A DNA stretch of 64,000 nucleotides from Gemmatimonadales bacterium. Lineage in GTDB: Bacteria > Gemmatimonadota > Gemmatimonadetes > Gemmatimonadales > GWC2-71-9. A program made the translations under genes and the position numbers. Positions 2,063 through 38,450 of this stretch are shown here, in pieces. The stretch spans positions 47,033-111,032 of the forward strand of contig DASTSO010000119.1 in the NCBI GenBank assembly GCA_035760645.1, given 5' to 3'. The notes beneath the pieces were generated by a model, which had not been told where the DNA came from, ran no database searches, and was given only the letters and a program-made list of their open reading frames with translations. Each line of letters starts with the position of its first letter. The stretch's first letter is position 1.

Positions 2063-2076
2063 TAGGGATTTCCCTA
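2063..2076. promoter_or_regulatory. Perfect 6-2-6 palindrome TAGGGA-tt-TCCCTA in a locally AT-rich intergenic patch; candidate operator
   Basis: Read directly. It lies about 450 bp upstream of the metalloprotease gene and downstream of the sigma-54 activator gene. Confidence 0.3.
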
Positions 2077-2109
2077 GTACCGCGGCAATCGCTCGTTCTC
2101 ATATCTTGC

Positions 2110-2148
2110 AACTGCGGAGTTACTCAACATTACACTGATACCGCAGTT
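2110..2148. promoter_or_regulatory. 8-bp inverted repeat AACTGCGG-N23-CCGCAGTT in an AT-rich spacer; candidate regulator or enhancer-binding site
   Basis: Read directly. The surrounding 2040-2160 is much lower in GC than the rest of the window. Confidence 0.25.
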
Positions 2149-2520
2149 CTAGACCCCTCCATCACATTTCGCGGCTTCTCCGCCCCTTTCTGGCGGCGCT
2201 GACCCGGTGCGCAGCGGCTGGTGCGGAAAGCGCCTACGACGAGCTCGCTGCAGCCGATACGGCCAACACGTCGTCCGACGGGTGGTCGCGACATAGCACC
2301 AACACGATTCGGGGCTTCATCGGACCCCATGAGGGATACTCGAGGTTCGCCGCCGCGCGCTTCTCATCCTGAGGCGGTTGGGGCTCGTACCACAGACACG
2401 TTCTGGATGCACCGATACGAGAGTCAGACGCGGCTGGTGAACGGCGGAAACGGAGCCTCATTGAGATGCCTGTGTGCCTCGGGGGCTCCCCTCTCCATCT
2501 CTCCTCACGGGAGGTCACGC

Positions 2521-4365: not shown

Positions 4366-4489
4366 TTGTGGCCTCGGCCCTCCAAGTGTTCGGGGCTAAG
4401 AGGGCCCTGCGGGTCCCAGTCCTCGGGGTGACAAGGGTCCACCAGTCGCATTTCTGAATCCATCGTGGAAGGGTCTCCGGGAGAGTGCC

Positions 4490-4909
4490 ATGTCTCGACT
4501 CGGGTTACATGCAGTTCTGCTGGTTGGCATCGGATTCGGACTGGGTTGCTCGAGCAGCCCTACCAATCAGAGCACAAGCGCAGTGAACGCGTATGTCTTC
4601 GGCACGGTGTTGACCAGTAGCGGAATGCCGGTCGTTGGCGCTACAGTGGCAATCCATGCCGAGATCGATTCTCCGAATGGCCTCCGCCCCTACGCCGCTA
4701 AGACGGCGAGCACGGACGACAAGGGCCGCTATCACATGATTCTCAGTGCTCCGCAGGCTCCCCCTGCCGACGCGCAGCTGACCATTGAGGTGAGCCCTCC
4801 GTCGGGGGCGGCTCTGCAGCCGGTAACAGTTCGGGACCAAGTCGCCCGTTTTCGCGATGCGTTTCCGCCCGCGGATAGTCTCGAAGTGAATGTGACGCTG
4901 ACACCTTGA
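4490..4909 (+). CDS. Small lipoprotein with a carboxypeptidase-regulatory-like beta-sandwich
   Basis: Lipobox GFGLGCSS. VFGTVLTSSGMPVVGATVAIHAE is typical of CarbopepD_reg-like folds. RBS GGGAGAG. Confidence 0.55.
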   Translation: MSRLGLHAVLLVGIGFGLGCSSSPTNQSTSAVNAYVFGTVLTSSGMPVVGATVAIHAEIDSPNGLRPYAAKTASTDDKGRYHMILSAPQAPPADAQLTIEVSPPSGAALQPVTVRDQVARFRDAFPPADSLEVNVTLTP

Positions 4910-5201
4910 CGGTCCGACGCCTTCGGTCTCCTGACAACCAGCGGCTGCTCTGATGGGCATCATGTGGGGGCATCAACTTGCGGCTATCGTAGGGCCGGAC
5001 CGGTACGTATGACTCCTGCATGGCTACCGCATCGGCTCCGCCGGCGCAGCTGGAAGTGCGGCGGCTCCAGGCCATGCGGGACAGCGTGGATCATGTGATC
5101 CACGGCCGTGACGGTGAGATCCGCGAGAACAAGAGTTACGGCCACAACGCGCTGCTGTCGTGCGATCAGCGCTGAGGGAGACGTCAGGTGAGAACTGAAT
5201 G

Positions 5202-5230
5202 GAACCGCCGACCCCATAGGGCGGCGGTTC
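5202..5230. terminator. Strong hairpin GAACCGCCGACCCC-ATA-GGGCGGCGGTTC followed by TGTCTTG; candidate intrinsic terminator
   Basis: Stem of 12 bp with one bulge, followed by a U-rich stretch on the plus strand. It lies 27 bp after an unlisted 48-codon ORF (5029-5175). Confidence 0.4.
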
Positions 5231-5461
5231 TGTCTTGCGACCGGATGGGGGCGCTCCCGGCTACATGTCCGGGCTCTTCGCAAGGACTCGGATTCTGCGC
5301 CCATGGCGTTCGGTCGGTGCATTCCAGCCGCCTCGATCGAGCTGACCGTCTGCTATTCCCGCACGGTGCAACCTGGCGGGCGATAACACCGCGGGGACCT
5401 CGGCATGGCCGACGGGTCCCCGCATCGATCGGCTTGAACTATCTAGGAGACGAAGGCTGGC

Positions 5462-5788
5462 TCACGCCCGGTGAACCTCCCAGGCGAGATGGGTGATGCC
5501 CTTCGTCCGCAGCTTGTCCACCACGAGGACGAACTCATCCCAATCACTCTGGGTGAACACACGAGGGTCGGGCTTTCCCGTGCGGCCCATGCGGAGCCGA
5601 GGCAACAGCCAATCGATCGCGACGACGGTGTAGCCGGTGCCAAGGGTCACTTGGGCCACCTCACTGACGTCCACGAGCCAGAATTCGAGGGCGAAGGGGG
5701 CGAGGCTGTATACCGGGCGCAGCCCGGCCTCGACCGCAACGTCGGCGAGGAGCACCGCATTGAGGGCCAGCGGCGCGAGTTCGCTCAT
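5462..5788 (-). CDS. Hypothetical small protein (108 aa), downstream gene of the coupled pair
   Basis: ATG at 5788 is preceded by GGAGGTGG. The sequence MSELAPLALNAVLLADVAVEAGL...VVAIDWLLPRL is globular-looking. The longer ORF-track N-terminus is an Arg/Pro-rich artefact. Confidence 0.5.
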   Translation of the reverse strand: MSELAPLALNAVLLADVAVEAGLRPVYSLAPFALEFWLVDVSEVAQVTLGTGYTVVAIDWLLPRLRMGRTGKPDPRVFTQSDWDEFVLVVDKLRTKGITHLAWEVHRA

Positions 5789-6069
5789 GGAACCACCTCC
5801 GACTGGCCGAGCCCAGCCGGCGCCCCAGGAGCGGCCGCGCCCTCGAGGCGCTTCAGGAGACCCTGAAGTCCCTGATCGGGATCGGGCCCATGGAGCGCCT
5901 CCTCCAAGCGATTCAGCGCTTCGAGCACCCGGGGGACTGGGTACGGAAAGGAAACGTCCGGGTCGAGCATGAGCTTGATGAGGCAGTAGTGGTGGACCAC
6001 GAACGCGAGGAACTGCGCGTCGCGGCGCGGCAGGACGATGGTGTCGCGAGACCGGGTAGAAGCGGGCAT
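5785..6069 (-). CDS. Hypothetical small protein (94 aa), upstream gene of a two-gene coupled pair
   Basis: Start taken at M31 of the ORF-track entry. The stop TGA overlaps the ATG of the next gene (ATGA). The start is uncertain because no clear SD is present. Confidence 0.4.
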   Translation of the reverse strand: MPASTRSRDTIVLPRRDAQFLAFVVHHYCLIKLMLDPDVSFPYPVPRVLEALNRLEEALHGPDPDQGLQGLLKRLEGAAAPGAPAGLGQSEVVP

Positions 6070-6796
6070 GGAATATGTGTGGGAGGGAAGGGGACCGAGC
6101 GGGGAGGGAGGCGAGCATCGGTCGACCCGCAATACCGGTGGGGCGACCGGGGACATCATGTGAGAGCGCGGGCAGCGGGTGCAAGTGGGCGGGGCGGACT
6201 CAGAGGCGCAATCGCTTGGCTGGACCGACCCTGTTTGGCCAGATGAGTCTGCCCGCCTTCGAGGTGACCCCCAGGCGATCTAGCCGCCGCCGAGGTCGCA
6301 GCCCGCTGCGCGGCGGTGGTGCTTGCTCCCGCATGCGTCAACCGGAGTCCGCGCGAGTACCGTGCCCGGTGGGCGCAGGCGGCGCCGGCCGAATACACCT
6401 TCGGTCAGTTGGATGTCTCGCCCTCCGGGGCGCAATGGAGCTTGGGGGTGGGTACCGCCGGTGGACAGGAGGGGTAAGCGGGAGCATCCCGACGGCCGCG
6501 CTGGGTCCGGTCGTTCGCTGAGGCCTCTCCGTCTTTCTTACGAGAGCCGAGGCCGGTCGATGCCGCGAGCGGGTTTCACCTTGAGGGCTCCGCACCCCCG
6601 GATTTAGGCAATCGAGCCCGCAAAGGTGGCTGAGGCAGCCGTCACCATCCGGATATCGCCCCCGCTTTGAACCCCGGTCTGGCTCCTTGGCGAGCAGCAA
6701 ATCGCCAGTCCGGATTGCCGCGAGGCAAAGGGTGGTGTCAGCCCCGCCTCGTATATTCTCCATCACCCCCCCCACTCTCACCTCCCAGGAGCCCTC

Positions 6797-7351
6797 ATGC
6801 TGCTCAAGGCCGCTGCCTTGAAGGCCGTGGCGCTGTCCGCCATAGCCGCGACTGCGCTGGCTGCTGTTCTTCCCGAGCGCACCGTTATTGTGACGCAGCC
6901 TGGAAGTCCGATTCAGATCACGAAATATCAGGCGCACTACAACGAGGGGAACCGGTTTGTCGCGCGTGGCATCGCGCACATGGTCTCCTACACGAACACC
7001 TCGCCGAAGAAGGTGGTGGCGTTCCGGGTCGGCATCGTGTCGTTCAACGTGTTCGACGAGTTCCTCGGTCGCATGGGTGGCTACGCCACCGAGGATCTCG
7101 TCCCGAACAAGGGCGCCCCGGGTACCTGGACCCAGAACGTCTATGCCGGTTCCTCATTCCACACGGGCATTATGTACGTGGACAAGGTCCGCTTCGAGGA
7201 CGGGACAATGTGGGTCTCCGACAAGGCCCCGGTGCTCGAGGCGATCCGCCAACTCCAGAAGGATTTTGACTCCAAGCTCCTGGAGGAGCGCTTGAACCGC
7301 GAGGTTCCGGGCGGAGAGGCCGCCGGTGGCGCCGCTGCGGCGGGAGACTGA
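6797..7351 (+). CDS. Secreted hypothetical protein (signal peptide)
   Basis: RBS AGGAGCC. Signal peptide MLLKAAALKAVALSAIAATALAAV. Balanced amino-acid composition. Confidence 0.65.
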   Translation: MLLKAAALKAVALSAIAATALAAVLPERTVIVTQPGSPIQITKYQAHYNEGNRFVARGIAHMVSYTNTSPKKVVAFRVGIVSFNVFDEFLGRMGGYATEDLVPNKGAPGTWTQNVYAGSSFHTGIMYVDKVRFEDGTMWVSDKAPVLEAIRQLQKDFDSKLLEERLNREVPGGEAAGGAAAAGD

Positions 7352-7373
7352 CCGAGACCGCTTGAGTCGCTGT

Positions 7374-7420
7374 GTGCCGACGTCGGGGCTCTCTCGGGAG
7401 CCCCGACGTCGGCGCACAGT
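7374..7420. terminator. Bidirectional intrinsic terminator between convergent genes
   Basis: Stem GTGCCGACGTCGGGGCTC with its complement GAGCCCCGACGTCGGCGCAC, followed by AGTTCTACTT. Confidence 0.5.
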
Positions 7421-7477
7421 TCTACTTGCAGTGCCACGGGCGCCGGTTGATGGCAGCCTGGACGGCGTCGCACTGGG

Positions 7478-8188
7478 TTAGGGGTCCACCCCGGGCCGGG
7501 CAAGCAGGCTGTCGACCGGATAGTCCCAGACATAACCGCCGCCATGCACCGCGATATGCGTGATTCCGACCGCCCTGGCCGCCGTCGGAGTGAACGCGCT
7601 CCGGTTCCAGCCCTGCACCGACGCGTCACCGAGTTCGGCCTGGACGAAACTGCCACGCGCGTGACGCTCGGCGGATTCGAGGTCGGCAGCGTACCGGGTC
7701 GTGATGTCGAGCCGACGGGCGAGCGTGTCGCGCACGTAGACCACGTTCGCGCTGCCCCATTGGCGGTAGACCTGCGCGACCTGACGGGCGAAGGCGATCC
7801 GGCGCTGAATCCCACGGCTCGCCTCGTCGCTCACGGGTTGCCACAGAGTCCCCGCCGCATCACGAATCGCAATGTCCCACCGATGGCCGCCCCCCGGCCA
7901 CTGGATCTGGAGCTCCGTGAAGCCCCGCCGCTGCAGCTCCGGAATGGTGGTGAGCCCCTTCGGCTCGAGGTTGCCCGCGATCATCGCTGGCCGCACGCTG
8001 TCCAGGGGCCCGGTCGAGCCGTCCACTCCCGGCCCCTCCGGGCCGATGTCGAGTACGAGGCGCGTTACCTCCGCTCCGACCGCCCCCAGACGCCACGGCA
8101 TCCCGAGTTCCGCTGCCGCTTGTGCTCGCTTCATGAGGTAGTCGGCACGGCGCCGCCCCATCACTGTCTGAGCGCGGTGTCGTGCCAC
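7478..8188 (-). CDS. Hypothetical protein, probably a lipoprotein whose true N-terminus extends to about 8340
   Basis: The same frame upstream of the GTG at 8188 encodes ...IAAGALLVTTATLVTACGPSSESQQ, a lipobox followed by a linker. No ATG, GTG or TTG precedes it before the in-frame stop. Confidence 0.55.
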   Translation of the reverse strand: MARHRAQTVMGRRRADYLMKRAQAAAELGMPWRLGAVGAEVTRLVLDIGPEGPGVDGSTGPLDSVRPAMIAGNLEPKGLTTIPELQRRGFTELQIQWPGGGHRWDIAIRDAAGTLWQPVSDEASRGIQRRIAFARQVAQVYRQWGSANVVYVRDTLARRLDITTRYAADLESAERHARGSFVQAELGDASVQGWNRSAFTPTAARAVGITHIAVHGGGYVWDYPVDSLLARPGVDP

Positions 8189-8764
8189 GTCGGGCGGATA
8201 AATGAGGCTGTCGGCAGAGGGTAGCGCCGCAGGGCTTGAGGCGCCTGTCGGGGACCGCGCGGGCCGCTGCTGCGATTCGGAGCTAGGACCACAGGCCGTG
8301 ACGAGTGTGGCCGTCGTAACGAGGAGGGCCCCTGCGGCAATCGTCGGTAGCGGGGTAATCGACCGACACTTGGCCTCGAGCGGTATCTACATGTCGAGCG
8401 TCTCCTGGTTGGCAGCCGTCTGGTCGACGGCTGTCTATTGACGCATGGGGAGGCACGCCAGGCGGGGCACGTATAGGCAGGAAGGCGGCTGGCCCCGAGC
8501 GTCTTGGTGCTGGTCCGTTGCGGGGGCGCAGTGAGCGCGAGATGGTGGTGTGTGCCCAGCACGTGCCGGACCTCGCACGCGAGGTACTCCGCTCGACTAG
8601 CGTTGCTGGGCCACGTCCGAGCCCATAAAGCATTCCGTCACCGGCGCGGTGCTCGACGATGCAGGTGGTCCTACGAGCTCACTGGGAGGACGGGTTGCCT
8701 GCGTGCCTCATCAACTCCACTGCCCCCCGTCGGGGACACTCCGCGAACCGGGTGCATAACGGCG

Positions 8765-11700
8765 TCAGGAGACTCGCTTGCGCAGGGCGGCGGCGCCGGG
8801 GCAGCCGAGGCGAGCCATGGCCTCGCACACCTCTAGGAGCACCGCACGATCTGCCCGCGCGTCAATGAGCTCGCCCACGAGGGTCTCGAGGTCACCACAC
8901 TCCCAGCGCAGTTGCGTCGTGCCGGCGAGCACGTGCCGGAGCAGACACGCGACGGGCTCCGGCGCCGTGCGGGCGAGGCCTTCCTCGCGAAGCTCATAGA
9001 ACAGCATCGTGTGCTCGCCGAGGGTGATCGGCATCGCCACGAGGAGCTCCACGACCGCCGGCAGCACTGTCCGCAGGCCGAACACCCACTCGAGCATCGC
9101 CCGCCGTTCCTCCTCACTCAGCGGGCTCGGCACACCAGTAAGCCGGTCTCGCCAGTAATCGGCGAGCCAGCGAGTCCACGCCAACTCGGCCGCATCGGCG
9201 CTGAGCTCGCGGAGCTCCCGCCCCATCGCGGCGGCCCACGCCGTGTGCGTAGCGGGGTCGGCGTCCCGAATGAACCGCTCGAGCCAACCGCCGTGCCACG
9301 GATCGGCAGACGAGTAGAGCGCCACGCCAGCGAGTCGTCCCGCAAAGTCCTCGCGACGACGCTCAAGCGCGGAGCCTATCCGCTCGTACGTCTGCTCCAG
9401 GTAGGGCTGGAGCCGCTCGAAGAGCGCGTCGTTCCAGCGCCCCCACTGCAGGTAGCCGTCCCACGCGTGGGCGGCACGATCCTCGTCCACCGTCCAATCG
9501 AATAGCGGCAGCAGCTGGCGACCAGACCATTCCGGATCAAGCGCGTAGAGAAAGTGCGCTTGGCTCGCGAAGATGATCCGGGCCCGGTCCGCACCGACGG
9601 TCGGGACTTCCAGGACATGGTCGAGCCGGTCTCGCTCGGCCGGCGGCAGGCCGGTCCACTCGTCGCCGGCCGTGTTCCGAAGGGTCTCGAGCGTCTGGAG
9701 CCAGGCCATCGCTGCCCGTCCGGCCGGGTGGTTGATGGCCAGGAACAGCCAGTCGGGACCGTCGGAGGTGCTCACCGTGTCCCCGAGGTCGTCCCGGAGC
9801 GCGAGCCGCTCCGCCATGTCGCGCACCGTGTGGAGCAGGGCGGGCGGGGCGCCCCCGTCCCCCTTCGCCGCATGGTCGAGCAGAGACGACACCTCATACG
9901 GAAATGCGTGCTCGAGGTGGCGGTGGGTCTCGAGGAGTTGAAGCACGCGGCGCCACTGGAGTTCGTCGAGCGCGGCACCGCGCCACGCCTCCAGCACCGC
10001 GGGCCAGAGCCCGGCGTCCTCCGCCTCACCGTGGTCGCGGAGCGCCTCGGCGAGCTCCCAGGACCACTCAAACGAGGCCCTGCTGGCGTCCCGCACCACC
10101 TCCAGCAGCCCGTGGCGGTCCGGCCCTTCACCCGTGCGCTGGTCACCTTGATATGCGAGCAGCCAGCCGAGCTCGGCCCTCGGCGACAGGGCCAGGAGCT
10201 CGTCGACGCCGCGCGGGCTCACCGGGATGACCGGCTGCACGCCCGACGACCAGTGGGTCAGGTCCGGGTGCTCCCGCGGCTCGAGGTCCGGGGTAGCCGC
10301 CTTGGCAGCGGCGAGGCGGTCGACTGTGATGGCGGAGTCGGGGGCCGCACGGGCCAGCCAGACGAGCAGGTTGTAGCGCTCGTACGTCTCGATCCCGGTC
10401 TCCTCGGGCGTCGTCGGCGGTTGCTCGAGGACGGGCTGCACGAGTGCGGCATCGAGGAACGCTTGGCGGGTCGCCTCGTCGGCCGCGGCATACGCGCGCG
10501 CGAGCAGGCGGAACGTCTCGTGCTTGAGCGCTGAGTCGTGGAGCCAGCCGGCCGCGAGCACGTCGGCGAGTGCCTCCGCGGGCTGGTTCGGCGCGCGCTC
10601 GGCGAGGCCGTGGATCGCCAGGCGCTTCAGGAGTGGCGACGCCGCCTCCCGCCAGAGGGTGATCCAGGCATCGGCGACCTTCGGCTCCGCGGCCAAGAGG
10701 AACTCCAGCAGATCCCGCGCGGCATCGACCACGACATCGAGGCCCGAGGGATACGGATCCTGCGGGTGTGGCTCGATTGCCGACCGGCGGAAGCTCAGCG
10801 GGTCCCATACGCCGTCCGCGGTCCCGGCGGCGACAAGCAGCACGTGCGCGCGCGTGAGGCTCTCGGTGAGGAGCATGCCGACGGTGCGATGGCATCGCGG
10901 CAGCGCGGGTAGGAAGAGGCGCTGCCAGCTCTTGCGGAGGGTATGGTCGTCCCCGGTCGGGCCGATCGAGAAGCGAAGCCGTGGTGTGACACCGGCTCCG
11001 TCCAGCCCCGGCAGCGCCGGGCCCAGGCTAGAGACCGGAGCGATCAGGTGCCCGAGGAGGAGGAGGGCTCCGGCGAGTGCCTCGGGCGGGCAGCGCCCGA
11101 GGAGCTGGCTCAGGGGGCGGGCGTCCCACTGCGGGTTCCGCGTGGTCACGAGAACCGTGATCCATCGCATGAGGAGCTCGGGCTCCGGCAGCGGGTCCAC
11201 CGCCGCCAGGTGCCAGGCGAGGCTGCGCCAGCACTGGTGCCCGAGTTGGAGATGGTGGGCGCGCAGGAGATCGAGGAGCTCGCCCGAGTGCTCGAGCATG
11301 AAGCGCTCGGCGAGCCACTGGGCGAGCTCGGCCACGGCGCCCGGGTCTGCAGTCGGTGCATTCCCGAAGAGCGGCTCGAGGACGCCGGCGTCGGCAGCGA
11401 ACGTGAGCCAGGCCGGGACGCTCGCGTGCCGCACGAAGAACGGGCGCTGGACCGGGTCGGCGAGCGCCCGCCGCAGGTAATCGACGTCGCGTCGCTCGAT
11501 CGGCGGGGCGACGCTGACCAGCGTGCGGATCCGATGCTCGTGGTCCAGCGCACCCATCGTGGCGAGGTTCGCCCAGGCCTCGAGAGCATCGCTCAAGGCG
11601 CCGTGATCCCGTGGGGCGCGGAGCGGATAGTGGACCGGCCGGATGCCGAGCTCCGCCCAGCGCGCGTCGCTACCCGGAGTCGTCAACGCGAAGCGGGCGG

Positions 11701-12346
11701 TCCCGGGCACCAGGCTCCGTGCCAGATAGCGCATCGTCGGATCGCCGTGGCTGTAGCCCACAAAGCAGACGGTGTTGTGCAGGAACAGCTCGAGCAGCAG
11801 GCGGGTGGCCCACCCCTCTGTCAGGTAGGCACGACCGAAGTCGGCGTCGGTGAGCACGAGCGGGTGGTGGGCTATATCCAGCGCGCCGTGTACGTGGATC
11901 AGGCCACGGGCCTGGCGCCCTAAGGGGAGCGCCGGCGCCGTGTACAGGGGGGCCGCGCCCGCACCGTGGCGGTCGGTGATCACGGTCGCGAAGTGCCGAT
12001 CGAAGTTCGTGGTGACGATCCGGATCCGATCCGGAGCCCCGAAGAGCCGCACGATCGCCTCGTGCATCGGGGTCGGCTTCGACGACGCCACGTCGAGCAA
12101 CTGGCGCGTGCGGCCCTGCACATCCACCCCGCGGTGCTCCGCGCGGCCGAGGTACTGGTCGAGGGGCTCTCCCGCCGTGGGAGCCCCGATCGCGGTCTCC
12201 GCGACCTGTCTGGCAAGCCGCTCGAAATCCGGGAGGTTCGAGGGAGAGCCCATGGAGACGCCGGCGCCGGCGAACACAACGAGGCGCCCCTCTTGGAGCG
12301 CCTCGAGCAGATCGTCGGGAAGGTCCACCTCGGTCGTGACGAACAC
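8765..12346 (-). CDS. Large SIR2-like domain protein (N-terminal SIR2_2-type NADase fold, helical C-terminus of about 850 aa); candidate DSR-like antiphage effector
   Basis: GTG start. Rossmann loop VVFAGAGVSMGS. Catalytic-region motifs IVTTNFDRHF and LIHVHGALD, then VLTDADFGRAYL and CFVGYSHGDP. These are the motifs that define the SIR2 family. No HerA, TIR or Argonaute partner is adjacent. Confidence 0.8.
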   Translation of the reverse strand: MFVTTEVDLPDDLLEALQEGRLVVFAGAGVSMGSPSNLPDFERLARQVAETAIGAPTAGEPLDQYLGRAEHRGVDVQGRTRQLLDVASSKPTPMHEAIVRLFGAPDRIRIVTTNFDRHFATVITDRHGAGAAPLYTAPALPLGRQARGLIHVHGALDIAHHPLVLTDADFGRAYLTEGWATRLLLELFLHNTVCFVGYSHGDPTMRYLARSLVPGTARFALTTPGSDARWAELGIRPVHYPLRAPRDHGALSDALEAWANLATMGALDHEHRIRTLVSVAPPIERRDVDYLRRALADPVQRPFFVRHASVPAWLTFAADAGVLEPLFGNAPTADPGAVAELAQWLAERFMLEHSGELLDLLRAHHLQLGHQCWRSLAWHLAAVDPLPEPELLMRWITVLVTTRNPQWDARPLSQLLGRCPPEALAGALLLLGHLIAPVSSLGPALPGLDGAGVTPRLRFSIGPTGDDHTLRKSWQRLFLPALPRCHRTVGMLLTESLTRAHVLLVAAGTADGVWDPLSFRRSAIEPHPQDPYPSGLDVVVDAARDLLEFLLAAEPKVADAWITLWREAASPLLKRLAIHGLAERAPNQPAEALADVLAAGWLHDSALKHETFRLLARAYAAADEATRQAFLDAALVQPVLEQPPTTPEETGIETYERYNLLVWLARAAPDSAITVDRLAAAKAATPDLEPREHPDLTHWSSGVQPVIPVSPRGVDELLALSPRAELGWLLAYQGDQRTGEGPDRHGLLEVVRDASRASFEWSWELAEALRDHGEAEDAGLWPAVLEAWRGAALDELQWRRVLQLLETHRHLEHAFPYEVSSLLDHAAKGDGGAPPALLHTVRDMAERLALRDDLGDTVSTSDGPDWLFLAINHPAGRAAMAWLQTLETLRNTAGDEWTGLPPAERDRLDHVLEVPTVGADRARIIFASQAHFLYALDPEWSGRQLLPLFDWTVDEDRAAHAWDGYLQWGRWNDALFERLQPYLEQTYERIGSALERRREDFAGRLAGVALYSSADPWHGGWLERFIRDADPATHTAWAAAMGRELRELSADAAELAWTRWLADYWRDRLTGVPSPLSEEERRAMLEWVFGLRTVLPAVVELLVAMPITLGEHTMLFYELREEGLARTAPEPVACLLRHVLAGTTQLRWECGDLETLVGELIDARADRAVLLEVCEAMARLGCPGAAALRKRVS

Positions 12347-13003
12347 GCACGGAATCTATCTGCCCCCGAGACCTTGGCTAGCCGAAGCCCCCGGCCCGCG
12401 AAGCGGGCCGCCTCTAGACGTGCCGGATGGCAGCTGCCGAGGAACTGAAGCGGAAAACACCCGGCAGGTTGACGCGGGAACAGGCGAGAGCGTGAGCCGA
12501 GCGGCCCCTCGCGGCCGCAAGGATGGCTCGGGCTCGGTCGCCACTAGCGGAGCAGCCGGACCCCGTCGCGGCGGACGCGCTCCTGGCGCGGATGCCTCGA
12601 GCAACCCTCAGGGCAGGGGCAAGTCCGAGCTGCCCCGATTCGACGAGGGGAGCCCGGAGCAATCGGTGCTGGTCGGCACGCTCGCTGCCGAGGAAGCCAC
12701 TCCTCCGCGCCCTCCCAGCAGCAGGCGGTCCGGTGTTAGCATTTCCGTGGGTCGTTTCAGAGTCGGCTACGGGACGTGCGCTCAGTCGCCGGTACCGGAC
12801 CTTGGGTCGCGACACTGCCCTTCGCCGGCTGGGGTACCGGTGGGACTCGCCCTCAATCTGCCGTCCGAATGTGCCCGGAGCGAGTGCCGGGCCGAGCCCC
12901 TAGCCGAGTGACAAGTGACAGCGCGATGGCCACCGGTGGCCCGTCGAAGTCTCCTCTAAACGCTTGGTATTAGTGGCCATCGGAAATGGGCGCCCGTCGG
13001 CGA

Positions 13004-15219: not shown

Positions 15220-15399
15220 ATGCCTCTGGAGATGCGCGAGCGCTGCGAGCGGTGCGGCCAGGCCCTCGAACTCGACGGCCCGGCCTCCATCTGCAGCTAC
15301 GAATGCACGTTCTGCAACGCGTGCGCTGAGGCCATGGCCGGCGTCTGTCCGAACTGTGGCGGGGAGCTCGTCGCCCGGCCCCGGCGCCGGTCTGCGTGA
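15220..15399 (+). CDS. DUF1272-type zinc-ribbon protein (59 aa)
   Basis: MPLEMRERCERCGQALELDGPASICSYECTFCNACAEAMAGVCPNCGGEL: CxxC...CxxC ribbon. ATG at 15220 after CAGGAG. Confidence 0.6.
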   Translation: MPLEMRERCERCGQALELDGPASICSYECTFCNACAEAMAGVCPNCGGELVARPRRRSA

Positions 15400-15745
15400 C
15401 CCTGCCGTCGTTTCGGGCCGCGCTCCTCAGGTTGGCGTCGACACCGGCCCACGTACGGTTCCCCACCGCGCGCCGGGCACGCGGAGCCGAGGGGCGCTGC
15501 GACGGCCCGCCGGGTACCCGGCGGACCGCCACGCTCGGCTCACCACGGGTGGTAAGTGGACAAGGGCGCCCCCACATCTCGCGTGGGGGGCTCTCATGCC
15601 GACTCTCGATGCCGCCTGGCCGCACGCGCCGGGTGGCGACATCCTCATCTACATCACGGCCGTCATCGTCCTGCTCGGCTCGCCGGGCCCCGGCATCGCC
15701 GCCCTGCTCGCCGTCGGACGGGAGCGCGGTCTCGCCGGCGCCCTG

Positions 15746-16613
15746 GAGGTCGTTTCATAACCGCCGCTGGGCGGCGGCGTAGATTGCGGGCAGGTGGTTT
15801 GATGGAGCTGCCCGATGGCCTTTCTCACCGATGCCCAATGGGCGCGCATCGCGCCCTTGCTGCCCCCGCCGCGCCCGCACCCGCGCGGCGGCCGCCCGTG
15901 GGCCGATGACCGGGCGTGCCTCGAAGGCATTCTCTGGATCCTGCGCACCGGCGCCCGCTGGCGCGACTTACCACGGACCTACCCGAGCCCGGCGACCTGT
16001 TGGCGGCGCCTCGCGCGCTGGGAGGCCGAGGATCGCTGGAAGCGGATCTGGCGCGCGTTCCTCGGCCAGCTGGATCAGCGGGGGCTGCTCGGCTGGGAAG
16101 AATGCTTCCTCGACGGCACCTTTGCGCCGGCGAAAAAAGGGGGCCCGCCGTCGGCACGACCCGCAAGGGTAAGGGCACGAAGCTCATGGTACTGGTCGAG
16201 CGCGCGGGTCTACCTCTCGGAGTTTGCCTCGACGCTGCCACGGTGGCCGAGGTCAGCCTCGCCGAAGCGACGCTCGCCACGGTCGCGGTCCCGCGCGGCG
16301 GCCCCGGGCACCCGAAGGTGAAGCCCGTGCGCATCATCGCCGACCGGGGCTACGAGAGCCGCGCCCTCTGGCAGCGCCTGCGGCGACGGGGGATCGATCT
16401 CATCGTGCCGCATCGGCGGCAGATCATCCACCGCTTCCAGGACGGCCGGAAGCTCCGACGCTATCGCCGACGCTACATCGTCGAGCGCACGATCAGCTGG
16501 CTGCTGAGCTTCCGCCGGCTGCTCGTCCGCCATGAGCACCGGATCGAGCTCTACCGCGCCTTCGTGCACGTCGCCTGCCTCTGGATCGTGCTCAGGCGGT
16601 TATGAAACGACTA
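15746..16613. mobile_element. IS5-family insertion sequence (IS1031/ISL2-like), 868 bp, 20-bp imperfect terminal IRs, 3-bp target duplication CTG
   Basis: Left end GAGGTCGTTTCATAACCGCC; right end is its reverse complement, GGCGGTTATGAAACGACTAC. The 17-bp core is perfect. CTG flanks both ends (15743-45 and 16614-16). Confidence 0.8.
15815..16605 (+). CDS. IS5-family transposase OrfAB produced by -1 programmed frameshift at AAAAAAG (16133-16139)
   Basis: OrfA MAFLTDAQWARIAPLLPP...GARWRDLP is the DUF4096/HTH part. OrfB in the -1 frame (RKGKGTKLMVLVE...IIADRGYES...YRRRYIVERTISWL) carries the DDE region. Shifting at the A6G run reproduces the OrfB frame exactly. Confidence 0.8.
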
Positions 16614-17128
16614 CTGCGGTTCTACCTCGGCATGCAGCTCGGGCTCGCGATCGCGGCCGGGCTGAGCGTCGCCGGACTCGCCGCGGCGCTCCGCGCCGTT
16701 CCGCTGGCCGCAACGGCGCTCACGCTGATCGGGGCCGCGTACCTGGCCTGGCTCGCGTGGAGCATCGCCACCGCCCCCGTCGGCTCGCCCACGGCATCCG
16801 GAGCGGTGGCGTCGGCCTGGGGCGGTTTCCTTCTCGGGGCCGCGAACCCGAAGGTGTATCTCGCGCTCGTGTCGCTCTTCGCCTCGTTCCGTCTGGTCGC
16901 GGCGGGTGGCGCGACGGCCGAGTACCACGATGCGCTCCTCAAGTGGGCGCTCTGCATCGGGGTCACGGCGGTCGTGGACCTCGGCTGGCTCGGCGTCGGC
17001 GTGGGGCTCGGACGCGTGGCGCTTTCCCCGCGGGCGGAGCGCGTGCTCAACGTCGTCATGGGCGGGACGATCGTCCTCGCCGCCGCGGCCGCACTCCGCT
17101 GAGCGGCGATCAGGCGACACCCCGTCCG

Positions 17129-17693: not shown

Positions 17694-18932
17694 ATGGAAA
17701 ACGTCACCCACTCGCTCGCCGGCCTGCTGCTGGCCGAGGCGGCGGTGCGGCTCCGCGCCCGCACGACGGGCACGGAGCCCTCGGCGCGCTTCCGCACCGT
17801 CGCGGCCGTCTCCTCGCTCGTCGCCGCCAACCTGCCCGACGCCGACCTCTTCTACACCGGGGTCGGCGGCGACCGGCTCGCCTACATGCTCCACCACCGC
17901 GGCTACACGCACACGGTGGTCGTCGCCCTGGCCGGCGCGCTACTCGCCTGGGGCGCGGCCTGGCTCGTCTGGCGCCGGCGCGCGCACGCGCCCCCGCCGC
18001 GCGCCGACGCGCGCTGGCTCCTCGGGCTCCTGCTCGTCAGCACGCTCGGCCACCTCGTGCTCGATTGGACCAACAGCTACGGCGTGCACCCGTTCTGGCC
18101 GGTGGACGACCGGTGGCGCTACGGCGACGCGGTGTTCATCGTCGAGCCGTGGTTCTGGGTCGTGGCGGTGCCGCCGCTCGTCGCCGCGAGCCCGCGCCGC
18201 CTCTCGCGCGCGCTGCTCTCGCTCCTGCTCGCGATCGGGCTCGTGCTGGCGTGGCGCGTGAGCCACGTGACGACCGGCGCGGCCGTGGCGCTCACCGCCG
18301 GCGCCCTCCTCTCGATCGGGCTCGCGCGGGCGCTGCGGCCGGGCCCGCGCGCGGCGGTGGCGGTCGGCGGGTGGATCGCGGTCACGCTCGCGCTGGCGAC
18401 GGGCGCCCGGGCCGCGCGCGCCGCGGTGACGCGCGAGGTCCGCGCGGCCGCGCCCGCGGCCGACCTGCTCGACGTCGTCGTGACGCCGCTGCCGTCGAAC
18501 GCCGTGTGCGCGCGGGTGATCGCGGTAGAGCGCGAGCGGGAGACGTACCGCGTCGTCACCGGCCGGGCGAGCGCCGTGCCGCGGCTCGCGCCGGCGGCGC
18601 GCTGCGGCGACGCGGACGACGCGGGACCGCGCTTCGGCACGCCCACCCGGCCCTCGTCGCCGGCGGTGCAGTGGGATGCGGAGTGGACCGCGCCCGCCGC
18701 CGAGCTCGCGACGCTGGCGCGCGCGAGCTGCCCGGCGCTCGCCGCCCTGCGCTTCATCCGCGTCCCGGCGTGGCGCGCGCTCCCCGACTCGACCGTCCTC
18801 CTGGGCGACGTGCGCTACGGCGACCTCTCCGGCCGCGGCTTCACCGACGTGACCGTGCCGCGCCGCTCGGCCGCGTGCCCCGCGGCGGTGCCGCCCTGGG
18901 TGCCGCCGCGGGCGGAGCTGCTCGGGGAGTGA
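17694..18932 (+). CDS. Membrane-bound metal-dependent hydrolase (YdjM/DUF457 family) with a long Ala/Arg-rich C-terminal extension
   Basis: MENVTHSLAGLLLAEAA...MLHHRGYTHT is the N-terminus characteristic of the family. Multiple TM segments. Confidence 0.7.
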   Translation: MENVTHSLAGLLLAEAAVRLRARTTGTEPSARFRTVAAVSSLVAANLPDADLFYTGVGGDRLAYMLHHRGYTHTVVVALAGALLAWGAAWLVWRRRAHAPPPRADARWLLGLLLVSTLGHLVLDWTNSYGVHPFWPVDDRWRYGDAVFIVEPWFWVVAVPPLVAASPRRLSRALLSLLLAIGLVLAWRVSHVTTGAAVALTAGALLSIGLARALRPGPRAAVAVGGWIAVTLALATGARAARAAVTREVRAAAPAADLLDVVVTPLPSNAVCARVIAVERERETYRVVTGRASAVPRLAPAARCGDADDAGPRFGTPTRPSSPAVQWDAEWTAPAAELATLARASCPALAALRFIRVPAWRALPDSTVLLGDVRYGDLSGRGFTDVTVPRRSAACPAAVPPWVPPRAELLGE

Positions 18933-18978
18933 GCGGGGCGCGAGGGCCGGCCCCGGCCCGGATCGGCCCCTGCTCGGC

Positions 18979-19180
18979 CGGCCCCTGAAGGGGCCACTCG
19001 GCCTGCGAGCCCTGAAGGGCTCTCCGAGGCAGCGGTGCTCCGTGCGCTCTCCGGCGCCCGAGTTCTCGCAGCGGAGCCCTGCGCCCGCACAGGGCCCTTC
19101 AGGGGCCTCCGGCCGAGGGGCCCCTTCAGGGGCCGACTCGCAGGGGCCGACTCGCAGGGGCCGACTCGCAGGGGCCGGCC
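18979..19180. repeat. Copy A of an approximately 200-bp multi-hairpin palindromic intergenic repeat, with 3x tandem GGCCGACTCGCAGG
   Basis: Left arm GGCCCCTGAAGGGGCC-ACTCGGCCTGCGAGCCCTGAAGGGCTCTCCGAGG. The right arm is its reverse complement, ...GAGCCCTTCAGGGGCCTC...GGCCCCTTCAGGGGCC. It lies between convergent gene ends (18932 and 19220). Confidence 0.65.
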
Positions 19181-19219
19181 CGCAGCCGCCGCCTCGCGAA
19201 CCACCGCCCCGCGCGTCGC

Positions 19220-19927
19220 TCACTCGAATTCCCCCTCCCGCACCTCCCGAAACCCCGCCCGCGCCTCCGCGACGAACGCCTCCACCTTTTCCCGGCTCTT
19301 CCGCCCGCTCGCGTCCTCGACGCCGGTGTGCACGTCCACGCCCGCGGGCCGCACCGCGCGGATCGCGCGGCGCACGTTGGCGGGCGTGAGGCCGCCGGCG
19401 AGGATCACCGGCCGTGGCGAGAGCTCGACCAGCCGGCGGCTCACCGCCCAGTCGTGCGTCCGGCCCGTGGCGCCGCTCGCGCCGGTGTCGGGCGCGAAGG
19501 TGTCGGTAATGAACCCGTCCACCAGCGGCGCGAGCTCGCGCACCATCCGCTCGAACGCGGGGACGGGATGCAGGCCCACGACGAGACTCTTGATGATGGT
19601 CAGCGAGGGATCGAGCGCGCGGAGCCGCCGCAGCTCTTCCGCGGCGATGTCGCCGTGGAGCTGGACGACGCGCGCGCCGAGCGCGTCGCAGAACCCGGCG
19701 ATGGCGCGCGCCTCGTCGAGGTAGGTGATCAGGACGGCCTGCGCCGGCGGCCGCAGCCCTCGGATGATCGCCGCCGCGTCCGCCTCCGAGAGATCCGGCC
19801 GGTGCACCGGCAGCCGCAGCGGGAAGCCGAGCCACTCGACGCCGCACGCCTGGAGCAGCGCCGCCTCGGCCGCGTCGGCGATGCCGGCGACCTGGATCAG
19901 CTCGGGCGCGAGCGGGATCGCGGGCAC
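19220..19927 (-). CDS. trpF: Phosphoribosylanthranilate isomerase
   Basis: (beta/alpha)8 PRAI signatures: VQLHGD, GGLTPANV and the phosphate-binding region DTGASGATGRTHDW. Confidence 0.85.
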   Translation of the reverse strand: MPAIPLAPELIQVAGIADAAEAALLQACGVEWLGFPLRLPVHRPDLSEADAAAIIRGLRPPAQAVLITYLDEARAIAGFCDALGARVVQLHGDIAAEELRRLRALDPSLTIIKSLVVGLHPVPAFERMVRELAPLVDGFITDTFAPDTGASGATGRTHDWAVSRRLVELSPRPVILAGGLTPANVRRAIRAVRPAGVDVHTGVEDASGRKSREKVEAFVAEARAGFREVREGEFE

Positions 19928-26438: not shown

Positions 26439-27344
26439 TCACCCGTCGCACGCCGGAGCGCCGACGCCGATCGCCGCGAGCAGCGCCGCGGCGGCGCGCT
26501 CGGCCGCCTCCGGCGCCTGCGTGAAGAAGAGCGTCGGCTCGATCACCTCGAGCTCCATCAGCCGGAACGCCCCGTCCACCACGCAGCCGTCCACCCGCGC
26601 GTAGGCGAGCGCGGCCGCACCGCACCCGGTCGCCTCGCCCGCGGCGGCGAGCACCCGCTCGGCCGCCTCGCGCAGCGCCGCGGGCGGGGTCTCGAGGGTG
26701 GTGACGCCGCCGTGCTGCGGCTGGACGCGGAAGTCGCCCGCGCGCGGCCGCTTGCGCACGGCGTGCGAGAAGGCGCCGCCGAAGAAGAGCAGCGACCACT
26801 CGCCCTCCCGCTCGATCTCCGGCAGGTACGGCTGCACGAGCACCGTGCCGGCGGCGAGCGCGCGGAAGCGCGCGTCGTCGGCCGCGGCGCTCGCGCGCGC
26901 GGTGCGCCACGTCTCGTGCGCCGCGGCGGAGACGGCGGGCTTCACGACCACCGCGTCCCAGCCGGTCTCGGCGAGGAGCGCGGCGAGGTCGGCCGGCTCG
27001 CCCGGCTCGACCCAGCGCGTCGGCACCACCGCGACGCCGCGCCCGGCGAGGTCGCGGAGATAGCGCTTGTCGAGGTTCCAGCGGACGACGGGCGGCGGGT
27101 TGAGCACCGGCGTTCCCGCCGCCTCGCGGGCGTCGAGCCAGGCGCGGAAGCCGGCGGGGTCGAGGTAGTAGTCCCAGGTCGAGCGCAGGACGACGGCGTC
27201 GAACGCGTCCCAGGTCACCGCGGGATCGTTCCAGGCGGCGGCGGTCACGCCGCCGCCGCGGCGCGCGAGCGCCGCGGCGAGGCGCTCGTCGTCGGGCTGC
27301 AGCGCGGGCACGGCGGCGTAGGTGGCGAAGGCGAGATGGGGCAT
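26439..27344 (-). CDS. ATP-grasp family ligase (RimK/glutathione-synthetase-like)
   Basis: DKRYLRDLAGRGVAVVPT...VVKPAVSAAAHETWR...LLFFGG matches the ATP-grasp fold. Confidence 0.7.
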   Translation of the reverse strand: MPHLAFATYAAVPALQPDDERLAAALARRGGGVTAAAWNDPAVTWDAFDAVVLRSTWDYYLDPAGFRAWLDAREAAGTPVLNPPPVVRWNLDKRYLRDLAGRGVAVVPTRWVEPGEPADLAALLAETGWDAVVVKPAVSAAAHETWRTARASAAADDARFRALAAGTVLVQPYLPEIEREGEWSLLFFGGAFSHAVRKRPRAGDFRVQPQHGGVTTLETPPAALREAAERVLAAAGEATGCGAAALAYARVDGCVVDGAFRLMELEVIEPTLFFTQAPEAAERAAAALLAAIGVGAPACDG

Positions 27345-27510
27345 GGGCTACAAAGGCGCGAGTGAAGGCAAGCGGTCGACCGTCGGACGAGACGGCGGCT
27401 GCCGCCCACGCACCGAATCGGACGGAATCATAGCGAGGCGTACCGTCTTCGACGACCGCGAGCGCGGCGCGCTCCACCGTCCGCTCGCGAGTCGGCGCTT
27501 CGCGTCAGGT

Positions 27511-27690
27511 CGGCCCCTGAAGGGGCCGCTCGGCCTGCGAGCCCTGAAGGGCTCTCCGAGGCAGCCGTCCTCCGTGCCCACTCCGAGCGTCGTCCGCCCG
27601 GCGCGGTGCTCACGCCCGCAAAGGGCCCTTCAGGGGCCTCAGGCCGAGTGGCCCCTTCAGGGGCCGACTCGCCGAGTGGCGCCTTCAGCC
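27511..27690. repeat. Copy B of the multi-hairpin palindromic intergenic repeat
   Basis: Same arms as copy A: GGCCCCTGAAGGGGCC...GAGCCCTGAAGGGCTC on the left and GGGCCCTTCAGGGGCC...GGCCCCTTCAGGGGCC on the right. It lies directly downstream of the gene ending at 27685. Confidence 0.65.
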
Positions 27691-28146
27691 GCCGACCCGC
27701 GCGACCGGCGCCGGCTTCCCGATCGTCCGCCACGCGATCCACCCCGCCGTCACCAGGTCCCAGCTCAGGCACGGCACCGTCCACCACGTCGGCGCGAAGG
27801 CGCCGCCGGGGCCGGCGTAGTGGAGTGCGACGTCCCAGACGGGGTGCAGCGCCCAGGCGGCGGCGAGCCACCACATCGAGCCGCGCAGGCTCCGGAGCGC
27901 CAGCCCGCCGTAGACCCCGACGCCCAGGAGCTCGAGCAGGAGCCACCGCGGCGATGCGCCCGCGAGTGCGGCGAAGGCGACGTAGACGAGCGCGGCCACG
28001 ACGAGCACCCCGGCGAGGATCCGCCGCGTGTGGCGCGGGACGGCGTAGGCGAGGGCGACGAAGAGGCCGCCGAGGATGACGCCGGCGCGCAGCAGCGCGC
28101 CGAACTCCCGGGTCGTCAGCGGTGGGGCAAACTGGGCCGTGAGCAT
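27685..28146 (-). CDS. Hypothetical 4-TM membrane protein, co-transcribed with the cytochrome c peroxidase
   Basis: Hydrophobic helices. 4-bp gap to the upstream gene. Confidence 0.55.
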   Translation of the reverse strand: MLTAQFAPPLTTREFGALLRAGVILGGLFVALAYAVPRHTRRILAGVLVVAALVYVAFAALAGASPRWLLLELLGVGVYGGLALRSLRGSMWWLAAAWALHPVWDVALHYAGPGGAFAPTWWTVPCLSWDLVTAGWIAWRTIGKPAPVARVGG

Positions 28147-28149
28147 CGG

Positions 28150-29457
28150 TCACTCCTGGGTCGTGGGGGCCGCCAGCAGCGCCGCCGGCGCGGCGATCGG
28201 GCCGTCGAGGGTACGGAGGAACGCGACGAGCTGGGCGCGCTCGACGGCCGTGAGCTCGAGCGGCCGGAGCTCGCTGTGGCCCGCCGGCGCCGCGGGGGCG
28301 CGGTCGTAGTGGCGCACGACGTCGTCGAGCGTCGCGAGCTGGCCCGCGTGCATGTAGGGCGCACGGTCGGCGACGTGGCGGAGCGACGGCGTCTTGTAGG
28401 CGCGCACCAGCTCGGCGCCGCTGTCGGCGGCGAAGCGGAGCTCGCCGCACTGCTCGGGGCGCGCGTCGCTGTAGGGCCCGAGGCAGTTGAACTCGTCGGC
28501 GAGCGCCTGCCGCACGCCGCTCGCGCGGCCGTCGTCGGGCGGGAGCGCGGCGACGGCGGGCACGCCGGTGTTGTGGAAGCTCTGGTCGGTCAGGAGCGGC
28601 CCGTTGTGGCAGTTGGTGCAGTCGCCCTTGCCGATGAAGATCCGGAGCCCCGCGGCCTCGTCCGGCGTGAGCGCGCTCGCCGCGTCGGGCGCGCGGCCGT
28701 GCGTCACCGCGGCGACGTAGCGGTCGAAGCGGCCGGGCCCCGGCTCGAGCCGGCGCTCGTAGGCGGCGATCGCCTTGCCGATGTTGGCGAAGACGCGCGA
28801 GACGTCGGCGCGGCGCGGCGCGGGGAGCCGCTGCCAGGCGGTGCGCCGCACCGCATCCGCCACGGGGCCCGCGCGTCCGGGGAGCCCGGCGAGGTTCGGC
28901 AGCGGGCCGAAGAGCGCCTCGTACTCGGCCCCGTAGTGCGTGGCGACGAGGTGCGCGTACCGGGTGCGGTCGCCGCCGTGCTCGACCGGGCTCTCGAGGG
29001 GCCCGAGCGCCTGCGACCACTGGCTGTCCTTCCGCCCGTCCCAGAACATCCACGCACCGTGGGCCGTGCCGGCGATCGGCATCGTGCGCCGCGCGGTGGT
29101 GCCGACGCCGCGAGCGAGGGGGACGTCGTCCTGGAACTGTCGTGCCGGCAGGTGGCACGTGGCGCACGACACCCGGCCGTTGCTGCTGAAGCGCGTGTCG
29201 AAGAAGAGCCGGTGGCCGAGCGCGACGGCGCGCGGGTCGTCGGCGACGCGGTTCGACGGGTCGGGCGCGAGCGGCGCGAGCTCGGTGAGGGCGAGGGTGC
29301 GCAGCGTGGCGAGCTCGTCCGCCGTCCAGGCGACCGGCGCGCCCCGAGAGCCGCGGGCGCCGCGGGCGCCGCCGAGCGCGGCGAGGGCCGTCGCGGCGAC
29401 GGTCGCGAGGAGCGCCGCGACGGCGGCGAGCACGCGGAAGCGGGACGAGCGCGGCAT
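28150..29457 (-). CDS. Di-haem cytochrome c peroxidase (CCP/MauG family)
   Basis: Two CxxCH haem motifs, CATCH and CTNCH. Signal peptide. Conserved GRVSCATCH context. Confidence 0.85.
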   Translation of the reverse strand: MPRSSRFRVLAAVAALLATVAATALAALGGARGARGSRGAPVAWTADELATLRTLALTELAPLAPDPSNRVADDPRAVALGHRLFFDTRFSSNGRVSCATCHLPARQFQDDVPLARGVGTTARRTMPIAGTAHGAWMFWDGRKDSQWSQALGPLESPVEHGGDRTRYAHLVATHYGAEYEALFGPLPNLAGLPGRAGPVADAVRRTAWQRLPAPRRADVSRVFANIGKAIAAYERRLEPGPGRFDRYVAAVTHGRAPDAASALTPDEAAGLRIFIGKGDCTNCHNGPLLTDQSFHNTGVPAVAALPPDDGRASGVRQALADEFNCLGPYSDARPEQCGELRFAADSGAELVRAYKTPSLRHVADRAPYMHAGQLATLDDVVRHYDRAPAAPAGHSELRPLELTAVERAQLVAFLRTLDGPIAAPAALLAAPTTQE

Positions 29458-38440: not shown

Positions 38441-38450
38441 GCCGCGCCAG

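Follow-up and report, generated by a model that had tools for sequence, protein, structure and literature searches.

A probable REP/REPIN-type repeat family with a GCCGAG tag in a Gemmatimonadales genome

The bacterial interspersed mosaic elements (BIMEs) of Escherichia coli combine two subtypes of repetitive extragenic palindromic (REP) sequence, which differ by a few compensated stem changes and alternate in inverted orientation, with short conserved linkers and a variable number of units. They are positioned between co-directional operon genes and between convergent genes, rarely between divergent ones, and both mRNA stabilisation and binding of gyrase, integration host factor or DNA polymerase I have been shown for them. 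In the REPIN, an inverted REP doublet, the spacer is not conserved and yet is organised as a hairpin (PMC3337134), and the best-known candidates for mobilising REPs are Y1/HUH transposases of the REP-associated tyrosine transposase (RAYT) type (PMC3337134, PMC6006769, PMC3733652). The REP surveys consulted recognise two superfamilies, GTAG- and CGTC-tagged, spread over about eight phyla, and mention neither Gemmatimonadota nor a GCCGAG tag (PMC3733652); because some published REP classes lack GT[AG]G (PMC6006769; CGTC class, PMC3733652), this 5'-foot tetranucleotide is typical rather than universal. Here we describe three copies (A, B and C) of a palindromic repeat in a 64,000-nt stretch (the window; 73% GC) of contig DASTSO010000119.1 from a Gemmatimonadales bacterium (GCA_035760645.1). 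We surmise that these copies are probably non-coding, non-autonomous repeats of the REP/BIME/REPIN kind, mobilised via a hairpin-recognising enzyme, and by analogy with the systems above we infer that this enzyme is of the RAYT type. The family is new, with a new tag and in a new lineage, and the kind of element is well known; full-text literature searches found no published account of REP-like repeats in Gemmatimonadota.

The three copies constitute the largest direct-repeat family of the window by repeat detection, each being an imperfect palindrome of 230-290 nt. An earlier reading of the sequence alone (the sequence-only reading) had proposed three related copies at these places, and a three-way alignment agrees with it, showing a mean column identity of 81% with near-invariant arms (A vs. 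C: 81% identity over 192 nt, ungapped). The core of each element had been located correctly, but the true ends, as marked by palindromic outer arms, are further out, at about 18933-19219 for A, 27485-27711 for B and 38189-38447 for C (all given on the plus strand). The four small GC hairpins were also found where claimed. In copy A (fold z = -7.5), the outer left hairpin H1 (GGCCCC-TGAA-GGGGCC, 18980-18995) is followed by the complement of the tag, CTCGGC (18997-19002), and by the inner left hairpin H2 (GAGCCC-TGAA-GGGCTC, 19007-19022); a self-complementary centre of 69 nt (19023-19091), part-conserved among the copies, leads to the inner right hairpin H2' (GGGCCC-TTCA-GGGGCC, with one stem mismatch, 19092-19107) and then to one REP-like unit (19112-19134), made up of the tag GCCGAG (19112-19117) and the outer right hairpin H1' (GGCCCC-TTCA-GGGGCC, 19119-19134). 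Tandem 14-nt units (CAGGGGCCGACTCG), in which the 3' half of H1' and its linker are partly repeated, occupy 19127-19197 (period 14, 5.1 copies and 89% matches in Tandem Repeats Finder); three of them are clean (19127-19170), the number previously noted, and the rest are degenerate.

Copies B and C follow the same plan. In copy B, the left arm (27511-27554) comprises H1 (27511-27528), CTCGGC (27529-27534) and H2 (27539-27554), and the right arm (27623-27665) comprises H2' (27623-27638), GCCGAG (27643-27648) and H1' (27650-27665), with an extra degenerate outer unit GGCGCC-TTCA-GCCGCC at 27678-27693. In copy C, the left arm (38245-38287) carries H1 (38245-38260), CTCGGC (38262-38267) and an H2 with a TCAA loop (38272-38287), and the right arm (38357-38399) carries H2' (38357-38372), GCCGAG (38377-38382) and H1' (38384-38399); extra outer units, GAGTCGGC / GCCGACTC, are present on both sides. 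Relative to H1, the H1' of copy C (GGCGGC-TTCA-GCCGCC) has a compensated CC>GG / GG>CC change. The inner hairpins and the linkers show consistent left-right differences that define the orientation of a copy, and all three copies share one orientation.

The two halves of each copy had been described as reverse complements. The arms are indeed 78-82% complementary over 62-64 nt, but the hairpins on the right complement those on the left inexactly, as in H2' (GGGCCC..GGGGCC) vs. H2 (GAGCCC..GGGCTC). Similarly, the supposedly variable spacer (68-69 nt) is variable only in part: its first ~30 nt and last ~15 nt are conserved, and the spacer as a whole is largely self-complementary. The long stem-loop that had been considered possible is predicted for every copy: a long single hairpin outperforms shuffled sequences on either strand (RNA z = -6.7 to -7.8; with DNA parameters, z = -6.7). 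The 16-mer GGCCCCTGAAGGGGCC, allowing up to 3 mismatches, matched 17 times in the window vs. 2.2 expected, a count reached by none of 100 shuffles, and 16 of the 17 matches fell inside the three copies; elsewhere in the window, neither solo TGAA- or TTCA-looped hairpins (stem of at least 5 bp) nor a further match to a profile built from A-C was found. There are six outer units of 29-30 nt in three elements, all intergenic and all within 64 kb, which is the pattern of short, multi-copy, extragenic imperfect palindromes by which REPs are known.

An exact scan of 185,579 representative genomes with a 23-base arm pattern yielded one match only, on a 3.2-kb contig (L001) of a metagenome-assembled genome (MAG) labelled Longimicrobiales; the same pattern had no match in JGI metagenomes. 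Over 235 nt that take in the centre, the L001 element and copy A share 87% identity; beyond the element there is no similarity to the window. The L001 copy bears a 19-nt tandem array on the side opposite to the 14-nt array of copy A. A looser two-loop pattern retrieved 120 metagenome loci, mostly unrelated CCCTGAAGGG hairpin families (GTAG-type REP arrays, tandem repeats and one conserved sequence), among which L076 alone matched the window-family profile; L076/L128 has the family arms but a different perfect palindrome as centre. About 84 kb from the closest sampled relatives (L002, L123, L124, L125, L126 and L127) contained no copy, and relatives with 76-86% identical MetC or TrpF had different neighbouring genes, with synteny around the window copies not kept. 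The window family is lineage-restricted.

Recognised by architecture instead, approximately 17 of the 120 metagenome loci have their parts in the same order, with stems that differ considerably in sequence. From the left, this order is a 7-bp stem with a TGAA loop, CTCGGC, a linker of ~12 nt and a 4-6 bp stem with a TGAA loop, followed by a centre of 0-10 nt and the mirror image, which ends in GCCGAG and a 7-bp stem with a TTCA loop. Complete short elements were found at L003 (two copies), L031, L037, L046, L052, L073, L110 and L115, with an outer-to-outer hairpin span of 89-97 nt, compared with 155 nt in the window copies and L001 and 149 nt in L076. By exact-sequence look-up, flanking proteins from L031, L007 and L110 fall into 90%-identity clusters that also contain proteins labelled Gemmatimonadales or Gemmatimonadota. 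The window family is the long-centre form of this wider Gemmatimonadota superfamily. As the search pattern had fixed the loops of one arm only, the other arm was unconstrained, and there GCCGAG was present in all 10 complete elements and the TTCA loop in all but one.

We aligned 36 distinct units of tag plus hairpin on the loop. All 36 carry GCCGAG in place of GT[AG]G, and their stem cells are paired in 96.8% of cases vs. 61% in shuffled units and 28-48% with slid partners, with changes on both sides in 6 of 7 stem pairs; in reading these figures, the inner four pairs were required at collection and CCGAG and TTCA were in the collecting pattern. The three outer stem pairs, 92-94% paired, as well as the invariant G before CCGAG and the invariant C:G closing pair, were not imposed in this way. 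Within one element, H1 and H1' often differ by a compensated dinucleotide beside the closing pair, e.g., CCCAGGC vs. CCCACCC, and GGCCCC vs. GGCGGC in copy C and L001; short forms show such differences as well. Such changes leave the local hairpins intact but introduce 2x2 internal loops into the long hairpin predicted as the minimum-energy structure.

The basic unit is a "tagged hairpin" consisting of GCCGAG, a GC-rich stem of 6-7 bp, a C:G closing pair and a TTCA loop, and an element comprises two inverted units outside (H1, H1'), two smaller hairpins with the same loops inside (H2, H2') and a self-complementary centre of variable length. With this layout, either DNA strand, or RNA from either direction, can fold as four local hairpins or as one long hairpin. 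Movement would proceed via single-stranded hairpin DNA, with a dedicated hairpin-specific enzyme reading the invariant tag and loop; this enzyme would most likely be a Y1/HUH transposase of RAYT type, encoded once elsewhere in the genome, and the tandem units at the element edges would arise by slippage. By analogy, effects on the host, such as protection of mRNA 3' ends, attenuation of read-through or provision of new stop codons, may be by-products or secondary co-options.

Two pairs of occupied and empty sites bear on how the elements move. In two ENA samples of one study (ERZ27248630 and ERZ27248632), L128 and L129 are 99.1% identical over 2.9 kb, with an identical flanking M48 protein, and differ by a clean 133-nt indel: L128 holds a full element, and L129 has at the same site a perfect hairpin with a 14-bp stem, CGCCGGTCGGCCCC-TGAA-GGGGCCGACCGGCG. 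The indel thereby converts X-H1-inner-H1'-X' into the single hairpin X-H-X', which matches the "a-palindrome-a^c" singlet that REPIN excision leaves behind according to Bertels and Rainey (PMC3337134). Because the two alleles have only the 7-mer AGGGGCC in common at the junction, too short for a k-mer shortcut, an assembly artefact of that type is disfavoured. In the second pair, a 91-nt short-form element lies in a 124-nt gap between plsY and gpsA inside the der-plsY-gpsA operon, identical in L110 and ten further assemblies, and the same syntenic operon of L140 (GCA_001917665.1) has a gap of 16 nt, its flanks being 91-94% identical to those of L130, the occupied member of the comparison. No target-site duplication is seen at either pair (L128/L129; L130/L140), and the element comes and goes as a precise unit. 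Together with the differing gene contexts across assemblies, these two unit-sized polymorphisms uphold the earlier suggestion of a non-autonomous mobile element.

The same pairs speak to whether the copies might be classical miniature inverted-repeat transposable elements (MITEs), i.e., deletion derivatives of an insertion sequence (IS) with a DDE transposase, moved in trans through terminal inverted repeats and generating target-site duplications. The size of 150-290 bp, the inverted-repeat ends, the intergenic sites and the restriction to a lineage would suit a MITE, and the window does hold an IS5-family element at 15749-16611. However, target-site duplication was absent at both pairs, the L129 footprint is a fused hairpin rather than an empty site or a duplication remnant, and the ends are ragged and modular, with a varying number of outer units and no defined termini. 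In addition, the 17-bp terminal repeats of the IS5-family element (GTCGTTTCATAACCGCC) are unrelated to the repeat, and the compensated changes preserve local hairpins, for which a DDE transposase binding double-stranded ends has no need. With no defined termini, no target-site duplication at the two pairs and no related autonomous IS in the window, the copies are improbable MITEs of this class, and the corresponding proposal of the sequence-only reading is disfavoured.

A process without any dedicated enzyme is also conceivable, in which hairpin-stimulated slippage, gene conversion and local duplication act passively on GC-rich terminator hairpins. The 14-nt and 19-nt tandem expansions at element edges look like the work of such instability, and a 7-nt direct repeat lies at the borders of the L128/L129 indel. 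Slippage cannot, however, put 87%-identical copies of 235 nt into unrelated loci of different assemblies, and it leaves unexplained why tag and loop are invariant across the phylum beside stems that vary freely. We consider passive instability very improbable as the origin of the family.

Compared with the REPIN/RAYT systems of Pseudomonas fluorescens SBW25 and other bacteria (PMC3116915, PMC3337134), the elements studied here are likewise intergenic, lineage-specific and free of target-site duplication; they consist of inverted pairs of units around a variable spacer able to form a hairpin (PMC3337134), and loss leaves a single extended palindrome, as in L129 vs. L128. They differ from REPINs in that: 1) the tag is GCCGAG and not GTAG-like; 2) an element has four hairpins instead of two, as each arm also bears an inner one whose loop is the same; 3) compensated dinucleotide changes distinguish the two outer units of one element; and 4) Gemmatimonadota does not figure among the host phyla in the literature searched. 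The modular build, the alternating inverted subtypes and the gene locations recall enterobacterial REP/BIME repeats, including those of E. coli, whereas sequence, tag and loops are unrelated to theirs and the long, part-conserved 69-nt centre has no BIME counterpart. The GTAG- and CGTC-tagged repeats of Di Nocera et al. 2013 (PMC3733652) are also short, GC-rich, abundant and intergenic stem-loops with a short conserved tag abutting the stem end, often arranged as head-to-head or tail-to-tail dimers; in contrast, the window-family tag is a hexamer that belongs to neither superfamily, and its loop and closing pair are invariant. Palindrome-associated elements derived from IS200/IS605 (PATEs) and MITEs such as Correia/NEMIS, ERIC and RUP resemble the window copies in being small, non-coding, structured and dispersed, and may overlap gene ends and supply stop codons. 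The end hairpins of PATEs are nevertheless on the same strand and not mirrored, while DDE-type MITEs, Correia and RUP among them, end in defined terminal repeats and duplicate their target, neither of which was seen at the two occupied/empty pairs. Dispersed, intergenic and modular, with inverted pairs of hairpin units around a variable yet palindromic centre, the copies are REP/BIME-like, as had been surmised.

Several points weigh against the interpretation as REP-type repeats moved by a RAYT. The tag GCCGAG differs from the GT[AG]G or CGTC of the described REP superfamilies (PMC3733652). Unlike for REPINs, no RAYT was found for the window family: Pfam detected no Y1_Tnp among 55 predicted open reading frames (ORFs) of the window, and tblastn gave no match in the ~0.89 Mb of fetched loci, nor specifically in the window and the superfamily loci, with either query (an approximate E. 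coli RayT sequence and the Y1 protein of the locus L069); because RAYTs are typically single-copy, however, their absence from the window and the fetched loci says little. The copies counted are three in 64 kb, plus a single exact match among 185,579 representative genomes. At the base of a long hairpin, the 7-nt direct repeat AGGGGCC borders the L128/L129 deletion, which could have arisen by transposase-independent replication slippage. Lastly, the conservation of the inner pairs and of part of loop and tag is inflated by the way sequences were collected, and the superfamily alignment counts sequences rather than independent events.

Indirect support for a RAYT link came from L069, on a contig assigned to Chloroflexota. 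Its 2700-3709 region is a REPtron, in which CCGCCC-TGAA-GGGCGG hairpin repeats precede a Y1_Tnp/RayT gene (2892-3353; Pfam E = 3.5e-17) and a ~10-unit tandem array of the inverse TTCA-loop hairpins follows it, so that the gene is flanked by inverted arrays of CCCTGAAGGG-type hairpins in another soil phylum. In soil bacteria, then, RAYTs can act on hairpins of broadly this appearance; the L069 repeats are a different family from those of the window, and a homologue search with the L069 protein led to Chloroflexota, with no relation to the window lineage. It is also possible, though we think it rather unlikely, that the phylum-wide pairing of the GCCGAG tag with the C-TTCA-G loop reflects a hairpin-specific enzyme other than a canonical RAYT, cutting in or beside the tetraloops; the repeats would then represent a third tag class of REP-like elements with its own mobilising or processing machinery, maybe domesticated for a host function inside operons. 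The L128/L129 junction falls in AGGGGCC, a loop/3'-stem sequence common to both outer hairpins.

The genes beside the copies, called by third-position GC frame analysis and Pfam, are ordinary housekeeping genes. Copy A fills the gap between the convergent YdjM-like gene (17694-18932, plus strand) and TrpF gene (19220-19927, minus strand). Two of the copies had been thought to separate convergent genes, but A is the only one that does so: copy B lies between co-directional minus-strand genes for a DUF6010 protein (27685-28146) and an ATP-grasp-like protein (26439-27344), and copy C between metC (38451-39614) and a gene for a 119-residue protein (37752-38111), again both on the minus strand, the ORF ending at 38240 being a shadow frame. 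The copies are 8.5 and 10.7 kb apart, and their gaps of 287, 340 and 339 nt are among the largest intergenic gaps of the GC-rich part of the window. Element and gene end can overlap: the DUF6010 stop codon (27685-27687, minus strand) lies in the loop of the extra outer hairpin of copy B, TGAA when read on the minus strand, and stop codons within TGAA loops also occur in L076, L128 and L129, that of L076 belonging to the flanking M48 peptidase gene and lying in the outer hairpin. At copy A, the outermost arms (18927-18945 and 19207-19225, 84% complementary) take in the final codons (GAG TGA) of both convergent genes, and both stop codons may have been supplied or reshaped by the element. Among complete elements with both neighbours visible, ~7 are flanked by co-directional, 4 by convergent and 1 by divergent genes, a distribution that resembles REP/BIME and is a poor fit to a pure terminator.

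These positions nonetheless raise the question of whether the repeats are a selected cis-acting RNA element, be it a bidirectional terminator devoid of a U tract, a stabiliser of mRNA 3' ends or an operon processing site, with a conserved RNA-binding protein reading the C-UGAA-G / C-UUCA-G loops and with multiplicity reflecting function instead of selfish spread. In keeping with such a role, each of A, B and C begins no more than ~10 nt from a stop codon, much as the sequence-only reading had stated, the palindrome gives the same fold in transcripts from both directions, which would suit convergent genes, and the loops and tag are conserved across diverged genomes. The short form in the der-plsY-gpsA operon is, moreover, fixed and invariant in L110 and ten further assemblies. 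RNA of the minus strand, which for B and C is the sense strand of the upstream gene, also folds better by 0-8 kcal/mol in a comparison of G:U pairs and folding energy, but this difference is small and in the same direction in all copies. No T run follows the hairpins of A, B or C, a scan of 18700-19500 for hairpin-plus-T-tract terminators returned 0 sites, and Rfam 15 at gathering score had no match in the whole window (noise only for copy A, E >= 0.3; none for the L130 short form). Furthermore, the L001 copy sits between divergent genes, where no 3' end exists, and the close relative L140 is without the element at the same operon position, just as a 99%-identical strain has lost it at the other locus. 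Because relatives of the repeat sit inside the der-plsY-gpsA operon and between divergent genes, a function at 3' ends cannot be the whole story, and near-identical copies in unrelated contexts would require a copying mechanism in any case. A selected RNA element is thus an unlikely primary explanation, albeit the least unlikely of the alternatives to REP-type repeats, with an RNA-level function being possible as a co-opted role.

Other identities were considered and rejected. For an integron attC site, the R''/R' core sites (RYYYAAC / GTTRRRY) are lacking and the copies are dispersed, at the distances given above, among housekeeping genes of mixed orientation; Pfam scans of the window found no integrase. 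A CRISPR array, a coding region and a known Rfam RNA were likewise discarded. The IS5-family element, the only IS in the window, was rejected as a relative of the repeats on account of its unrelated ends. It spans 863 bp with perfect 17-bp terminal inverted repeats (GTCGTTTCATAACCGCC / GGCGGTTATGAAACGAC) and overlapping DUF4096 (15815-16321) and DDE_Tnp_1 (15916-16605) ORFs, and it appears to split a LysE-type translocator gene into an N-terminal-like piece (ORF 15356-15760) and a C-terminal part (16602-17102).

Elsewhere in the window, the stretch at 1.7-8.7 kb has a lower GC content (59-66% vs. 73% overall) and includes six ORFs with no Pfam match (2221-4365, 4505-4963, 5462-6184, 6338-6979, 6797-7351 and 7478-8188), adjoining a gene for a 1193-residue protein with SIR2_2 and DUF4020 domains (8765-12346, minus strand); the region 1700-12350 looks like an acquired island, possibly related to defence. 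In L002, the closest sampled relative (MetC 83% identical), metC directly follows a cytochrome c peroxidase gene, while in the window the cytochrome c peroxidase gene (28150-29457) and metC are 9 kb apart, with copy B coming after the gene next to the former and copy C directly after the latter. The copies may mark rearrangement junctions.

Among the metagenome loci, several from soil (L012, L022, L027, L030, L058, L078 and others) have tandem GCAGCCC-TGAA-GGGCTGC arrays followed by GCTACG; these are GTAG-tagged on the other strand and look like classical REP arrays, having the C-TGAA-G loop in common with the family studied here. A further set (L005, L006, L014, L024, L026, L036, L062, L081, L089 and ~10 other loci) shares a near-identical stretch, ACCCGCAGAGCGGGTGGTTTGAGGATACCCCCCTGAAGGGGGGTACTGAGG...GCCCCCTGAAGGGGGTGCATGAGG, in surroundings of varied GC content, with no Rfam match at gathering score in the two loci checked (L089 and L036). 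In four Logan contigs (L141-L144), whose TrpF is 85% identical to that of the window, the sequence runs on for ~60 nt past the stop codon and breaks off within another, distinct palindrome, GCCGCCTAAT...ATTAGGCGGC, in which CTGAAG stands close to the middle; this suggests that assemblies of this group break at 3'-end palindromes.

REP- and REPIN-type repeats are best understood in Proteobacteria, and Gemmatimonadota is an abundant, poorly cultured phylum of soil. The present family extends a known phenomenon to a new lineage and a new tag, leaving unchanged how such repeats are thought to work. The natural, excision-like polymorphism indicates that the elements have been recently active in soil populations. 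In MAGs, such elements interrupt assembly, enlarge the gaps between genes and in some cases provide stop codons, and the signature of GCCGAG plus a C:G-closed TTCA hairpin in mirrored double hairpins would make them recognisable to those who annotate these genomes. The same signature provides a handle for finding the cognate enzyme.

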